Assembly: GCA_934317845.1 (NCBI GenBank)
Contig: CAKRES010000005.1
Location: 51,988 to 115,987 of the forward strand
Direction: 5' to 3'
Length of the DNA stretch: 64,000 nt
DNA from: an uncultured Lachnospiraceae bacterium
GTDB lineage: Bacteria; Bacillota; Clostridia; Lachnospirales; Lachnospiraceae
A program made the translations under genes and the position numbers. Position 1 is the stretch's first letter, and the number at the start of each line of letters is the position of its first letter. Under the pieces are notes generated by a model. That model was given only the letters and a program-made list of their open reading frames with translations. It did not search any database and was not told the origin of the DNA. Positions 4,031-64,000 of the stretch are shown here, piece by piece.

Positions 4031-5194
4031 CTATTTGATCACACGTACCTTTACTACGCCGTCAATACTCTTTAATGCTTCTACTAATGTATCTGCCGGA
4101 ACACCATCTAAGTCAAGCATACAATATGCCCAGTCACCGCGGCTCTTGGAGATCATATTGGTTACATTGATATTCTGGTCTGCAAATACCTTTGTAAACT
4201 GGGTGATCATGTTCGGAATGTTCTTATGGTTGATCGCAATTCTTGCGGCACTGTCACATACGCCCATATCGCAGGCAGGGTAGTTGACAGAATTCTTAAT
4301 GTTACCATTCTCCATGTAATCCATGATCTCTTTCACTGCCATGATCGCACAGTTATCTTCGGATTCCTTGGTAGAAGCTCCCAGATGTGGAAGTGTAATA
4401 ACATTGTCCAATCCTGCAATAGCCGGATTTGGGAAATCGGTTACATATTTTGCCACTCTTCCGCTTGCCAGTGCTTCCTTCATATCTGCATCATTTACTA
4501 AAGTATCACGGGAGAAGTTCAAGATCTTCATACCGTCATGCATCAGTGCAAATGCGTCTTTGTTGAGCATTCCGATCGTATCCTTTAATGCAGGTACGTG
4601 TATGGTGATGTAATCACACTCTTTGTAAATGTCCTCGATATTGGTGATATGTTTGATATGACGGGATAATGACCATGCAGCATCGATTGATACAAATGGA
4701 TCATAACCATATACTTCCATACCAAGACGGAACGCGATATTGGCAACCTTTGCACCGATCGCTCCCAGTCCGATCACACCTAATTTCTTACCGGCGATCT
4801 CATTTCCGGCATACTGTTTTTTCTGCTTCTCTACCATCTTTGCGATGTTTTCATCGGAAGCATTTTCTTTTACCCAGTTATATCCGCCCATTAAATCACG
4901 GGAAGCTAACATAAGACCGGCTACTACAAGCTCTTTTACACCGTTGGCATTGGCACCCGGTGTATTGAATACAACGATTCCCTTTTCTGCACAGGCATCC
5001 AGAGGAATGTTGTTGACACCTGCACCGGCACGCGCAATAGCAGCTAAGTTATCGGAAAGGGTAAGCTCATGCATGGATGCACTTCTGACAAGCACTGCAT
5101 TTGCTTCACTGAATTCCTCTGTCATTTCATACTGCTCATTAAACAGATCCGTACCGCAGGCTGCGATAGGATTCAAACAATTTACCTTAACCAT
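4031..5194 (-). CDS. serA: D-3-phosphoglycerate dehydrogenase
   Basis: 2-hydroxyacid dehydrogenase fold with C-terminal ACT-like domain; adjacent to serC. Confidence 0.85.
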   Translation of the reverse strand: MVKVNCLNPIAACGTDLFNEQYEMTEEFSEANAVLVRSASMHELTLSDNLAAIARAGAGVNNIPLDACAEKGIVVFNTPGANANGVKELVVAGLMLASRDLMGGYNWVKENASDENIAKMVEKQKKQYAGNEIAGKKLGVIGLGAIGAKVANIAFRLGMEVYGYDPFVSIDAAWSLSRHIKHITNIEDIYKECDYITIHVPALKDTIGMLNKDAFALMHDGMKILNFSRDTLVNDADMKEALASGRVAKYVTDFPNPAIAGLDNVITLPHLGASTKESEDNCAIMAVKEIMDYMENGNIKNSVNYPACDMGVCDSAARIAINHKNIPNMITQFTKVFADQNINVTNMISKSRGDWAYCMLDLDGVPADTLVEALKSIDGVVKVRVIK

Positions 5195-59843: not shown

Positions 59844-59900
59844 AAAGTGTTCTTCTCCATACCGGGCAACTGCCTGATAAGGAGAGAACACTTTTGTTTT
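59844..59900. terminator. bidirectional intrinsic terminator between pbuX and the anti-sigma gene
   Basis: stem aaaagtgttcttctcc / ggagagaacactttt followed by TTGTTTTATTTT. Confidence 0.55.
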
Positions 59901-60603
59901 ATTTTACAGTAAAGGGACGGTATGTGGTTTTTTTGCCTGCTTTTTCCAGCACAAGGATCAGGTCTTTGTATCTTATGGTTTCATCACCTTCCGGCTCAAG
60001 CTTATAGGATAAATAGGAATCTGCTCCAATTTTGTAAGTTTCACTATGATCAGAAAGCCGGTGCGTTTCTGTTACATCCTCTAAAGTAAACTTCCACGAC
60101 AGCGTTTTATCATAATCGTCTACCTCTTTATAGCTGTCTTTCTTTACATCATATAAATATTTGATGCTTTCATCAGATTTGTAAAAACGCACATATTTTC
60201 CATCCGTTGATGCATCTACAAATACACAGGGATTTCCTTGTATCTGTGTCATCTGCAACGGTCTGAAATCGCAAAATCCAATGAGCTGTTCCTGTTTCAG
60301 ATCATACACCCAGATTCCGATGTAATCATACATAATGACCTGGTCTGCCCCATAATAAAGAATACTCGGCATCGTTGCTCCAAGCTGTATCTCTTCTTTT
60401 CCCTTTTCTGCTGCCACAGCTTTGTAAGAAGATCCTTTTTGAACATGTGGCATCACAAATGCAGCTACCACGAATAAAAATACCATACACGCTACAAGAG
60501 GGAACAGCTTTTTACTCCGTTTCTTTGGATTGCCGGTTCTTGCCTCAGCAATGTAATCCTCTCTGATCCCCTCCATCACTTCCAGAAGCTTCTCTTCTTT
60601 CAT
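59899..60603 (-). CDS. putative anti-sigma factor (single-pass membrane protein)
   Basis: 4-nt ATGA overlap with the upstream ECF sigma gene; short cytoplasmic N-terminus, one TM, ~170-aa extracytoplasmic domain of unknown fold. Confidence 0.55.
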   Translation of the reverse strand: MKEEKLLEVMEGIREDYIAEARTGNPKKRSKKLFPLVACMVFLFVVAAFVMPHVQKGSSYKAVAAEKGKEEIQLGATMPSILYYGADQVIMYDYIGIWVYDLKQEQLIGFCDFRPLQMTQIQGNPCVFVDASTDGKYVRFYKSDESIKYLYDVKKDSYKEVDDYDKTLSWKFTLEDVTETHRLSDHSETYKIGADSYLSYKLEPEGDETIRYKDLILVLEKAGKKTTYRPFTVK

Positions 60604-61160
60604 AGCTCATATCCCCTTTCTATCAGATAATCATGCAGTTTTTTTCTGATTCTCTTTAAGGTTACCGATACATGATTGGGTGTCATATCAAACCGCTGTG
60701 CAATGTCTTTTACGCTGTCTGCGTACCAGTATCGGCATACAAAGAGCTTTCTTTTTTCCTCTGGTAATTCCGTCAAAAAAGCATTGATACACTCTAACAG
60801 ATAGTTCTCCTCCCATTCTTCCTCCAGGTCTTTGGAACCGGAAAGCACCTCCTCAAGCTCCTCCAATACTAAGGGCAGTTGACCACCACCACGCTTTTTT
60901 CTCTTGTTTTTCTTATAACGGTTAATGGAAAGATTCCGGACAATTTTGCCAAGATAGGTAGAAAGCATTTGCGGTTTGTCCGGCGGGATCTTATTCCAGA
61001 GTACCAGCAAAGCATCATTTACACACTCCTTTGCATCTTCCCTGTTTCCTAATATATTTTCTGCAATCGTCATGCAATAGGAATCATATTTTTCTGCTGT
61101 GCTCAAGATTGCCTGTTCCTTACGTTCCCAATACATCTGTACGATTTTTTGATCCTCCAT
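60600..61160 (-). CDS. ECF-subfamily RNA polymerase sigma-70 factor
   Basis: sigma-70 region 2 and region 4 HTH (SVKDIAQRFDMTPNHVSVTLKRIRKKL); strong AAAGGAGGAAGG RBS. Confidence 0.85.
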   Translation of the reverse strand: MEDQKIVQMYWERKEQAILSTAEKYDSYCMTIAENILGNREDAKECVNDALLVLWNKIPPDKPQMLSTYLGKIVRNLSINRYKKNKRKKRGGGQLPLVLEELEEVLSGSKDLEEEWEENYLLECINAFLTELPEEKRKLFVCRYWYADSVKDIAQRFDMTPNHVSVTLKRIRKKLHDYLIERGYEL

Positions 61161-61354
61161 GCAACCTTCCTCCTTTCACCTTATTACACAACTTTAAGAG
61201 GAAAATGTGACATGGCATACTTAGTTTTTTTTAATTTGTATTTTCCTTTTCCGTGTCCAGACACGGGTTCAATTACATCTGCCTGAACTAAGTTGGTCAA
61301 AAAGTCTGTGAACATGAACCGTTGTTCTGATTGAAAAATCTTTCTCCTTCCTTA

Positions 61355-61400
61355 TACAAAAAAGCACCAAATGAATACTTGCGATCATCCGGTGCCAATT
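61355..61400 (-). terminator. intrinsic terminator ~350 nt downstream of leuC
   Basis: minus strand GGCACCGGATGA-10nt loop-TCATTTGGTGCT (12-bp stem with G-U pairs) followed by TTTTTTGTAT. Confidence 0.45.
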
Positions 61401-61565
61401 TTTCCTCAACTCATCCCACTATATCATTCCATCTCTGTTTCATTCCCTCATCTAAAAAATAACACAGTTTCAGCATAAAAACCTGTTTTCTAAAATTGAT
61501 CTGTTACCTGCGATTATCTAAAGTTTAATGCAGACAGTTTTTATCCACATTGACGAGTGCTTTCC

Positions 61566-61718
61566 GTAACCGCCCCAGTGGGTTTCAGGTAAGTTTTCAG
61601 GCTCATTTGCACGCGTCGGTGCTTATGCCCTGTATTTTAGGGCATTACGCACCGCTACGCAGTGCAACGAAGCGAGAGCGTGCCTGAAAAATACCTGATC
61701 CCACAAAGGGGCGTTACC
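61566..61718 (-). repeat. ~150-bp long imperfect palindrome / extended hairpin in the leuC 3' region
   Basis: left arm gtaaccgcccc...ggtgcttatgccc and right arm gggcattacgcacc...ggggcgttacc are reverse complements with a few bulges and one ~24-nt insertion; centre loop tgtatttta; locally GC-rich. Confidence 0.6.
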
Positions 61719-61743
61719 ATCCAGAGTCGGAAAATTTAATGCA

Positions 61744-62979
61744 TTACGGCATTACGATCTCGCCCACAATGGCAGAAGCTGCCGCAGTTGCAGGTGATCC
61801 CAGATAAATGCCAACTTTGGAGGTACCCATTCGTCCTAAGAAGTTGCGGTTATTCGTTGCAAGTACCTTCTCCCCATCGGTTAAGATTCCACCGCTTCGT
61901 CCACAGCACAATCCACAGCCCGGCTGGGTAATGATGCATCCTGCCTCTGCCAAAGTCTGCATGTAACCCTTTTCGATTGCTTCCAGATATATCTTACGGC
62001 TTGCCGGAGTAATGATACACTTCACGGCTACCTTCTTTCCCTTTAAGATAGAAGCTGCAACTTCCAGATCCTCTAAACGTCCATTCGTGCAGGAACCGAT
62101 AAATACCTGATCCAGCTTTGTTCCGGCAATCTCCTTCACATCATGGATATTGTCTACCTGGGAAGGACACGCACAGACTGGAACAAGATCCCTAGCATCA
62201 TAATGCATCACCTTACAGTAAGTGGCATCCTCATCTCCGTAGATCCAATCCACCTCATCCATGGCTACCTTGGAATACTCACAGGTCTTTTCATCCGGAC
62301 GGAACAGACATGCCTTTGCGCCGGCCTCGATCGCCATATTGGATATGGTCATACGGGATGCTACACTCATGGCATCCACCGCAGAACCACTGATCTCCAA
62401 TGCCTTATAAGTTGCACCGTCAGAGCGCAGATCACCGAGCAGGCGTAAGATGACATCCTTGGCATACACATTGTCCGGCAGGGTTCCATCAATCACAACC
62501 TTGATCGTTTCCGGCACACGGATCCACATTTCCCCGGTTCCCAAAATAGATGCCATCTCGGTATAACCGATTCCGGAAGAAAAGCAGCCGACGCAGCCAT
62601 AAGTGGTCGTGTGAGAATCCGTTCCAAATACAATATTTCCCGGCTTTGCATATCCGGCTTCCGTCATTAACTGATGACAGATTCCATCACTTCGATGGAC
62701 ATGGGTCAGACCATATTTCTTTGCAAACTGATCTCCAATCTTAAAATGGCGTACATCCTCTACCGCACTGGTCGGCACTAAATGATCGTAGATCAATACT
62801 ACCTTATCCGGATCCCAGAGCTTTTGAAATCCCATCTCTTCAAACTTTTCTGCCACAAACGGAATGAAAATATCATGGATCATGACACGGTCAACCTGTA
62901 CCGTTACAATATCTCCCGGCTTTATATTCTCCGCATCCGTATGGCGCGCTATGATCTTTTCAATTAACGTATGTCCCAC
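61744..62979 (-). CDS. leuC: 3-isopropylmalate (or related) dehydratase large subunit, archaeal-type LeuC/HACN family
   Basis: aconitase-family motifs GTDSHT, SCTNGR, GCGLCCG; 411 aa. Confidence 0.8.
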   Translation of the reverse strand: MGHTLIEKIIARHTDAENIKPGDIVTVQVDRVMIHDIFIPFVAEKFEEMGFQKLWDPDKVVLIYDHLVPTSAVEDVRHFKIGDQFAKKYGLTHVHRSDGICHQLMTEAGYAKPGNIVFGTDSHTTTYGCVGCFSSGIGYTEMASILGTGEMWIRVPETIKVVIDGTLPDNVYAKDVILRLLGDLRSDGATYKALEISGSAVDAMSVASRMTISNMAIEAGAKACLFRPDEKTCEYSKVAMDEVDWIYGDEDATYCKVMHYDARDLVPVCACPSQVDNIHDVKEIAGTKLDQVFIGSCTNGRLEDLEVAASILKGKKVAVKCIITPASRKIYLEAIEKGYMQTLAEAGCIITQPGCGLCCGRSGGILTDGEKVLATNNRNFLGRMGTSKVGIYLGSPATAAASAIVGEIVMP

Positions 62980-62993
62980 GTGTTTTCCCTCCT

Positions 62994-63485
62994 TTAAATC
63001 AAACCATTTCTCTTCTGCATCGCTTTTACCAGACCACCTGCATTGATAATATCCATGAGATTATCCGGAAGGCTCGCGATCGGATAGTCCTTTCCCTGAT
63101 AGGAAATATTTTCTCCGAGCGTTACGGTCAGGGAATCTCCCTCTTTTACCACATCCTGAATGTCACTGTTTTCAATCAGCAGCAGTCCATTGTTGATCGA
63201 ATTGCGGAAGAAAATGCGGGCATAAGATTTCGCGATCACACATTTCACCTTTAACGCCTTGATGATCTCCGGCGCCTGCTCTCTGCTCGAACCGCAGCCA
63301 AAGTTCTTTCCGGCTACGATAATGTCACCTTCTTTGATCTGCCCTGCCAACTCCGGACGAAGAGGAGAAAACCCATACTGTTTCATATCTTCTACACTTG
63401 GAAGTGCCAGATACTCGGTAGGAATGATAATATCAGTATCTATGTCATCTCCGAGCACCCATACTTTACCTGTAAACTGTTCCAT
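62994..63485 (-). CDS. leuD: 3-isopropylmalate dehydratase small subunit (archaeal type)
   Basis: 163 aa, swivel-domain motifs GDDIDTDIIIP, GKNFGCGSSRE. Confidence 0.85.
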   Translation of the reverse strand: MEQFTGKVWVLGDDIDTDIIIPTEYLALPSVEDMKQYGFSPLRPELAGQIKEGDIIVAGKNFGCGSSREQAPEIIKALKVKCVIAKSYARIFFRNSINNGLLLIENSDIQDVVKEGDSLTVTLGENISYQGKDYPIASLPDNLMDIINAGGLVKAMQKRNGLI

Positions 63486-63503
63486 TTTGCTGCTCCTTTC
63501 CTG

Positions 63504-64000
63504 CTATTTCACATCCTGCGCTCCGGTGATATAGCCTGCCACCGCACTGGCAGCAACTGTCGCTGCACTCGCCATATAAACTTTGGAGCTTGGACTTCCA
63601 CAACGTCCCTTGAAATTTCTCGTTCCGGTTGAGATCAATACTTCATTTTCACCGATCACGCCCTGGCAGCTTCCCCAGCATACCGAACAGTTCGGATTCA
63701 TGATCATTGCTCCCGCTTCCATCAAGGTTGAAATGATGCCCTCATTCATGGCATCAATATATACCTGCTGGGATGCAGGTGCCACAAGGAACCGCACCGT
63801 ATCTGCAACCTTTTTTCCACGTACGACATCTGCCGCTGCTCTCAGATCACACAGACGTCCATTGTTGCAGGAACCTAAAAATGCCTGATCGATCGCGATC
63901 TTTTCTTCTTTCACCTCGGAAAGCGTGGCAAAATTATCTACAAAGTCCGGTCTTACCACAACCGGTTCGATCTTGGAAAGATCATACTCATAAACGGCAG
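63504..64000 (-). CDS. second aconitase-family (LeuC-type) dehydratase large subunit, C-terminal part; the N-terminal part lies beyond the window edge
   Basis: C-terminal region (GSCNNGRL...NCSVCWGSCQG...GTRNFKGR) is homologous to the C-terminus of the leuC at 61744-62979. Confidence 0.65.
   Translation of the reverse strand, partial: AVYEYDLSKIEPVVVRPDFVDNFATLSEVKEEKIAIDQAFLGSCNNGRLCDLRAAADVVRGKKVADTVRFLVAPASQQVYIDAMNEGIISTLMEAGAMIMNPNCSVCWGSCQGVIGENEVLISTGTRNFKGRCGSPSSKVYMASAATVAASAVAGYITGAQDVK

Follow-up and report, generated by a model that had tools for sequence, protein, structure and literature searches.

An extended palindrome behind a leuC-like gene is probably one copy of a previously undescribed Lachnospiraceae repeat family

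The window analyzed here is a 64,000-nucleotide stretch of DNA from an uncultured Lachnospiraceae bacterium close to Anaerobutyricum and Anaerostipes, the protein from L013 (MAG JBNMLP01) being 99% identical. Forty-eight of the 52 long ORFs of the window lie on the minus strand, suggesting one replichore with strong co-orientation, and neither a tRNA nor an RNA at the level of Rfam was found anywhere in the 64 kb. The gene of interest is the last (fourth) of two tandem pairs of small and large subunit genes adjoining thiC. A preliminary description of the locus had named it leuC and placed its stop at 61744. The stop was correct, while the identity as LeuC was reduced to a family-level match (aconitase / 3-isopropylmalate dehydratase large subunit, NF001614) below the LEU2 equivalog cut-off, and the gene is therefore called leuC-like below. 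The tandem subunits (window 61744-63959; L003 1913-5414) measure 158, 419, 163 and 411 aa; the final large subunit passes only subfamily-level NCBIfam models, and LeuCD could be either pair.

On the minus strand, the hairpin that is the subject of this study begins 25 nt after the leuC-like stop codon, and the nearest terminator-like site follows about 170 nt beyond it. This plausible minus-strand terminator, at about 61396-61358, agrees with the intrinsic terminator that had been placed at 61355-61400, and was missed by the consensus scanner because of its loop size. Further downstream, also on the minus strand, are an ECF sigma factor gene (60600-61160) and a putative anti-sigma gene (59899-60603), whose 234-aa product had no family match and is presumably an anti-sigma factor. 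This pair (59899-61160) was absent downstream of the operon in all loci of other species that were fetched. The features of the locus are as follows.

61744-62979, minus strand: large subunit gene of the aconitase / IPM-dehydratase family, 411 aa, stop codon 61744-61746 (context)
61566-61718: whole extended hairpin, a 'W' type copy of the palindromic element (model R1: 188.7 bits on the plus strand, 41.8 on the minus strand)
61566-61602, plus strand: left outer arm, pairing with 61682-61718, fast-evolving between paralogous copies
61603-61606, plus strand: junction linker TCAT, the short side of an asymmetric internal loop (linker 3-4 nt in all copies)
61607-61667, plus strand: conserved core, with exact motifs in every full copy parsed by regular expression
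61607-61615 / 61658-61667, plus strand: core helix P2
61616 / 61657, plus strand: covarying Y-R pair of the core
61617-61622 / 61649-61654, plus strand: core helix P3, CGGTGC / GCACCG
61655-61656, plus strand: CT bulge of the core
61623-61625 and 61645-61647, plus strand: TTA/TTA loops of the core
61626-61644, plus strand: variable apical hairpin P4
61671-61681, plus strand: side mini-hairpin AGC-GAGA-GCG(T) with the GNRA tetraloop at 61674-61677 (GNRA in all 12 parsed copies)
61682-61718, plus strand: right outer arm, sharing 31-mers with copy B of the trmB locus
61489-61565, plus strand: 'tail', common only to some copies (window, L013, L107)
61358-61396, minus strand: plausible intrinsic terminator of the operon transcript, with a 12-bp stem, two G.U pairs, a 10-nt loop and a U6 run (context)

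Positions 61566-61718 form an extended imperfect palindrome, a hairpin of about 57 pairs with a z score of about -8 on either strand, closed at its ends by the pairing of GTAAC (61566-61570) with GTTAC (61714-61718). RNA folding of 61540-61740 gave -88.3 kcal/mol on the plus strand (z -8.6) and -88.9 kcal/mol on the minus strand (z -7.4), where the transcript is predicted to form the extended helix; none of 200 dinucleotide shuffles was as good on either strand. When a 170-nt fold was slid over the whole window with correction for GC content, the site ranked first on both strands (z -6.1 and -6.8). It is the most extreme fold within the 64 kb, no comparable long hairpin was found elsewhere in it, and the window contains a single copy of the element. 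The hairpin has a GC content of 0.54, the flanking intergenic DNA 0.36 and the window 0.44. The imperfect palindrome of about 150 bp, its higher GC content and the absence of an ORF with a ribosome binding site, all of which had been proposed beforehand, were thus borne out by the sequence and the extreme folding energies, but the insertion of about 24 nt that had been described in the right arm proved to be an internal loop of 4 nt versus 14 nt. No T-run directly follows the hairpin on either strand, and it therefore does not have the form of a Rho-independent terminator. The element contains no credible ORF. A 45-aa ORF at 61550-61687 was rejected as protein-coding: the apical insert is 17, 18, 19, 28, 69 or 72 nt long in different copies and varies by non-multiples of three, so that no frame is conserved.

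Comparison with the related copies described below gave a consensus for the centre, which reads on the window plus strand CG-Y-CGG-YRC-TTA-(apical hairpin, 17-72 nt)-TTA-...-CCG-CT-R-CG-(8-13 nt)-AGC-GNRA-GCG. In the window, the 14-nt side of the internal loop (61668-61681) forms the small side hairpin AGC-GAGA-GCG. The shared core comprises about 75-110 nt, and whole copies about 150-260 bp. Its blocks matched exactly in every copy detected by regular expression, and no further copies appeared when mismatches were allowed in the core pattern; the exceptions are L273, whose bulge is TT and not CT, and the decayed copy C2 of L266. The loop of the side hairpin was GAGA, GAAA, GCAA or GGGA in the 12 parsed copies, in every case GNRA. 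The Y-R pair was T-A in seven copies and C-G in five, helix P3 occurred as TGC/GCA, CAC/GTG and TAC/GTA, and the sequence of P2 was wholly different between subfamilies with its pairing always kept.

The outer arms, by comparison with this centre, are free to vary. Distant copies share little or no arm sequence, yet the two arms of each copy pair with each other almost entirely by Watson-Crick pairs. Even the homologous arms of the window, L141 and L143A copies are only about 70-75% identical, the changes (C-G to T-A, G-C to T-A and G-C to A-T) having occurred on both arms. An origin of the arms by copying of host flanks was ruled out by the L273 insertion, which includes the arms and thus shows that they belong to the inserted block. 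The tail of the window copy holds a weak promoter-like pair on the plus strand (-35 TTGATC, 61496-61501; -10 TAAAGT, 61519-61524). A 13-nt direct repeat, AAAGTTTAATGCA at 61520-61532 and AAAATTTAATGCA at 61731-61743, brackets tail and hairpin; it was considered as a target duplication and rejected, probably not being one because the left copy accompanies the tail in L107 and L013.

A search of the genome collection with the upstream (leuC-like) protein yielded 80 orthologous loci. The hairpin was also present on six other contigs of the same species, at 95-97% identity. Against the most divergent strain, L013, the hairpin differed by 2.0% and the two flanking coding sequences by 2.7-3.1%, while the remaining spacer differed by 28-32%; segregating sites numbered 8 in the 153 positions of the hairpin and 159 in 490 positions elsewhere in the spacer. 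On these sequence comparisons the hairpin is conserved between strains as well as coding DNA, which suggests a function at the level of the host and counts against a repeat. The copy in the window is intact, and the description of a decayed element did not hold.

In most of the loci from other species, homology ended at the leuC-like stop codon and was followed by ordinary short terminators; in about 75 other species such a terminator follows the orthologous gene and the element is absent. Unrelated long near-perfect palindromes were seen directly after the orthologous gene in L027 (about 4250-4400) and L023 (about 4350-4420), one of them about 150 nt long with AT-rich arms and without the core motif of the family. 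The spacer after the leuC-like orthologue seems prone to hosting palindromes.

The same core recurs in copies that occupy at least six further intergenic contexts in Lachnospiraceae, and also on a predicted viral contig; all copies found were intergenic. A metagenome scan with a 20-mer from the arm detected one extra locus, L107, adjoining trmB and carrying one full and one partial copy, and a spurious ORF through the element matched three database 'proteins', leading to loci L143 and L141/L142. An all-against-all representative search with the same spurious ORF gave zero new loci, its two long matches being unrelated repetitive proteins, and a protein search with concatenated six-frame peptides gave no match. 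In L107, L143, L265, L266 and L269 the copies lie between trmB and a peptidase or ABC gene, and in L141 and L142 the copy follows a GntR-ABC operon and faces ybjQ. Covariance model R1, built from the close copies, recovered the remote relatives L056, L050, L055, L091 and L144. The L056 copy and a decayed remnant in L050 lie directly after the orthologous aconitase-family gene, in the same position and orientation as the window copy; the L055 copy and, in L091, an inverted pair 135 nt apart are located upstream of the aconitase-family operon. The core model R2 added a copy just after the tRNA-Lys terminator in L273, and found none in about 75 other Lachnospiraceae loci. The neighbouring genes are unrelated and the orientation of the copies is mixed (upstream of genes, in divergent spacers, in either direction), which ruled out a cis-regulatory RNA tied to a single class of genes. 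Neither a promoter nor a terminator recurred consistently across the copies. Short repeated motifs, ATATC(T)GCGGAACTGGAAT, were observed upstream of an SPFH-like gene in L056 (4440-4570), L055 (4250-4400) and L058 (4250-4275); they look like an operator array, and a similar GGATATCC occurs in the outer arm of the L056 copy.

The copy on the predicted viral contig, L144, was found by the covariance model. A looser core pattern run on viral contigs gave, among the matches listed, chance matches in GC-rich DNA with only L144 as a real copy, and scans of viral contigs with arm patterns specific to the window found nothing. BLAST searches of plasmids and phages with three different copies gave zero matches. 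In L144 the core-like motif is at 8-79, a second, partial copy of the GNRA side-hairpin region is at 1423-1487, and a match to group II intron domain V/VI (RF00029, 45 bits) lies about 1.2 kb off.

Filled and empty sites were found at three kinds of locus. In L273, a 244-nt block consisting of the whole palindrome (255-498), immediately after the T-run of the tRNA-Lys(ctt) terminator, is absent from L271 and L272, the flanks of which are 82-85% identical. Comparison with the empty L271 site (436-439) allows a duplication of TA/ATA, but the site is an A/T run. The aconitase-operon site is filled in L056, holds a remnant in L050 and is empty in L051, L058 and L055; about 300 extra nt in L056 stand against about 20 nt in L051 and L058, and no target-site duplication was visible at L056. 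The trmB spacer carries copies in one species, where it measures 805-1115 nt; in two sister species it is empty and 335-370 nt long. Among strains whose TrmB proteins are 99-100% identical, this spacer carries two to four copies in both orientations: one inverted and one intact direct copy in L265, and two inverted, one direct and one 5'-truncated copy in L266, L269 and L143. Between two copies in L265 (9500-9790), GATTGACT..CTACGGATATCGATA is repeated imperfectly several times; no tandem repeats in the trmB spacer were reported by Tandem Repeats Finder.

The L107 copy is a chimera, in which a left arm of the window type with its tail of about 80 nt is joined to the right arm of another copy, the breakpoint lying within the shared centre. 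The element family thus disperses, is gained or lost as a whole block, clusters, and recombines between copies through the shared centre. A mobile palindromic repeat (MITE/ERIC-like) had been among the roles first suggested for the hairpin, and this suggestion gained support because related copies exist elsewhere with insertion and absence differences, clusters, truncations and recombinants. Runs of 31-mers at 61605-61659 and 61677-61709 of the window copy recur in other copies. Short-k Logan contigs (k=31) that reach a copy all end inside it (L001, L002, L009, L010, L267, L268 and L270) while multi-k ENA assemblies read through, which fits a multi-copy shared core in those samples.

The centre is strand-asymmetric, since the core model R2 scored 58-97 bits on one strand but no more than 14 on the opposite one. 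The strand carrying the GNRA loop is the window plus strand, i.e. the strand antisense to the leuC-like gene. In the core alignment fitted to the structure model, 87.4% of the cells pair, compared with 72.8% in shuffles (0 of 500 as high), and paired cells fell to 25-47% in slid controls. Eleven of 18 pairs had changed on both sides (matched in 1 of 500 shuffles), and helix changes were double in 47 cases and single in five. This significant covariation comes from an alignment fitted to the structure model, and covariation on the close copies alone was not significant. G.U (G.T) pairs were scarce, with 0-5 among the 56-85 pairs of a trimmed hairpin, whichever strand was folded, and up to 11 per 107 when the hairpin span was set more loosely. 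Wobble pairs were therefore rejected as a guide to the strand, being too sparse and evenly split between the two. In several distant copies the non-GNRA strand gives the better fold, and the hints of strand conflict, with GNRA on the plus strand and a REP-like G(T/C)AG-plus-hairpin on the minus strand. The scarcity of wobble intermediates may be better explained by selection on a DNA hairpin, or by intrastrand template switching, than by ordinary RNA evolution.

A search of the whole window against Rfam 15 at gathering thresholds gave no matches, a permissive scan of 60500-62500 returned only MIR2593 (24.9 bits against a cut-off of 96.2), and none of seven loci holding other copies had an Rfam match at any copy; Rfam thus offers no family for the hairpin in the window or at these loci. 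Literature searches turned up no description of a comparable repeat or RNA from the abundant gut Lachnospiraceae. The closest likeness is to extragenic repeats of other bacteria. ERIC elements are also imperfect palindromes of roughly 130-250 bp, intergenic and often transcribed, with a conserved centre and in either orientation; related species carry members of the same family at different loci, and orthologous copies diverge less than the spacer around them. They differ in host (Enterobacteriaceae or Vibrionaceae versus Lachnospiraceae), and in the three-way junction with its GNRA side hairpin and the unrelated arms of distant copies, which are features of the Lachnospiraceae element. The ERIC1R and ERIC2 core sequences were absent even with three mismatches, and the element is therefore not an ERIC.

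REP, BIME and REPIN elements, which are mobilised by RAYT (TnpA-REP) HUH transposases, share the extragenic hairpins, single or clustered in alternating orientation, the conserved bulges and mismatches, and the joint change of the arms. The present family is likewise extragenic and forms clusters in alternating orientation (two to four copies in the trmB spacer, the inverted pair of L091). REP hairpins of 21-65 nt have a guide tetranucleotide, GT[AG]G, placed 0-2 nt 5' of the foot (PMC6006769). On the window minus strand GTAG (seven of 12 parsed copies) or GCAG (five of 12) occurs directly 5' of CGG...CCG and bears a resemblance to this guide. In the present element this tetranucleotide is a bulge inside a longer helix with a basal stem of 6 bp, while that of REP is at the free foot, and the GNRA hallmark is on the strand opposite to G(T/C)AG. 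REP/REPIN systems have a single-copy RAYT gene with REPs on its flanks; no Y1 transposase or RAYT gene was seen in the fetched neighbourhoods. The class 2 (RAYT-like) subclasses are sparse and occur mainly in Cyanobacteria, Bacteroidetes and Proteobacteria, and Clostridia are named only for the IS200-type subclass 1.1 (PMC6006769).

TIR-type MITEs of Gram-positive and other bacteria, such as RUP, Correia and bcr1, are small, non-coding, multi-copy and intergenic, with presence/absence differences and long hairpins when transcribed, and the small, non-coding, multi-copy element described here has the same insertion polymorphism; the TA target duplicated by Correia and RUP may correspond to the TA/ATA at L273. 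MITEs, however, have constant terminal inverted repeats matching an autonomous IS and a variable interior, while the present element has an invariant centre and variable termini, its outer arms being the most variable part and distant copies having no terminal sequence in common. The attC sites of integrons are similar in that the arm sequence is specific to each site, the folded structure and its bulges are kept, and the function is strand-specific on single-stranded DNA. They differ in having conserved boxes at the base of the hairpin and cassette arrays beside an integrase, neither of which the element has; GTAAC...GTTAC of the window does not fit the R''/R' boxes RYYYAAC ... GTTRRRY and is not conserved in other copies.

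Taken together, the element is probably a member of a previously undescribed REP/ERIC/MITE-like family of extragenic palindromic repeats, in which the hairpin would act as a single-stranded nucleic acid and of which the window contains one intact copy. A trans-acting factor would recognise the folded single strand, most likely DNA, as in REP/REPIN or other hairpin-dependent repeats, and the complementarity of the arms would be kept by selection on the hairpin or by intrastrand template switching. Besides the conservation between strains, several findings count against a repeat: no autonomous partner or mobilising enzyme was found, the termini are the least conserved part, unlike those of MITEs with terminal inverted repeats, and the three-way junction, the invariant GNRA loop and the conserved bulges have the look of a functional RNA. 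A structured non-coding RNA on the GNRA strand (the window plus strand), either a paralogous small-RNA gene or a module recognised by a protein, with the long basal stems as a stabilising clamp, is accordingly a possible though doubtful alternative; it would be new because no Rfam family matches. It is favoured by the strand asymmetry of the core (58-97 versus at most 14 bits), the GNRA tetraloop kept in 12 of 12 parsed copies through four sequence variants, the conserved CT bulge and TTA/TTA motif, the covariation of the Y-R pair, P2 and P3, and the position of the hairpin as a conserved island in a fast-evolving spacer. A promoter-like TTGAYY-N16/17-TA(A/T)AGT is also present about 40 nt upstream on the plus strand in the window, L003/L004, L013 and L107, but most copies have no such site upstream on the GNRA strand, none has a terminator downstream, and the hexamers of the tail are conserved no better than the spacer. 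G.U pairs make up only about 2% of the pairs and are no commoner on the GNRA strand than on the other, the changes in the helices are almost all from Watson-Crick to Watson-Crick, and several distant copies fold better on the opposite strand. Clusters, block insertions and copies that are truncated, nested or chimeric are what a repeat would show. GNRA-type loops such as d(GCGAAAGC) also form unusually stable DNA mini-hairpins.

The selected 3'-UTR helix behind leuC of the preliminary description fared unevenly. At the window locus it is plausible, because the hairpin lies between the stop codon and the minus-strand terminator; the element would be transcribed on the minus strand within the 3' UTR of the operon, where a stable stem-loop would block 3' exonucleases or serve as a target of RNase III. 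As an explanation of the element in general, i.e. a locus-specific device that stabilises the mRNA 3' end or is an RNase III site, it is unlikely, even though the minus strand folds as well as the plus strand, the L056 and L050 copies follow the orthologous gene in the same position and orientation, and conservation of the hairpin between strains is strong. It cannot be the function of the family because copies also lie upstream of genes, between divergent genes and in either orientation, because about 75 other species have an ordinary short terminator without the element, and because the strand-specific GNRA tetraloop is antisense to the leuC-like transcript; the close relatives of L056 have empty sites in addition. 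A role in the leuC 3' UTR is at most a local side-effect. Very improbable is a signal on single-stranded DNA, such as a single-strand origin or primosome site of an integrated element or an attC-like recombination site. The long imperfect hairpin with bulged bases is almost purely Watson-Crick, is strand-asymmetric and carries a mini-hairpin of the GCGAAAGC type, and the GTAAC...GTTAC ends of the window recall the AAC/GTT triplets of attC, but these ends are not conserved in other copies, and the conserved part is the centre, whereas attC conserves the base. The copies are scattered singly in ordinary chromosomal spacers with no integrase, Rep, relaxase or cassette array nearby, and plasmids and phages gave no BLAST matches.

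The extragenic repeat thus remains the preferred reading, and in annotation of the window the hairpin should be labelled as a repeat element and not as a regulatory structure of leuC. The REP, ERIC, BOX, RUP and Correia families influence how genomes rearrange, how stable mRNAs are and how strains are typed in well-studied pathogens. The visible effects of the present family are breaks in short-read assemblies, structural variants at the level of strains (two to four copies in one spacer) and recombination between loci. A more speculative proposal, to which we give only limited credence, is that the invariant centre, with its three-way junction, GNRA side hairpin, CT bulge, covarying helices and T.T (U.U) mismatch, serves for recognition in a hitherto undescribed system of Lachnospiraceae that depends on structure, either a new class of structured RNA with paralogous genes or a folded single-strand substrate of hairpin-guided mobilisation by a hypothetical new enzyme that would ignore the termini. 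With its unusual architecture, the centre fixed and the arms free yet strictly complementary, the family is a useful case for the recognition of hairpin repeats and for the upkeep of arm complementarity.
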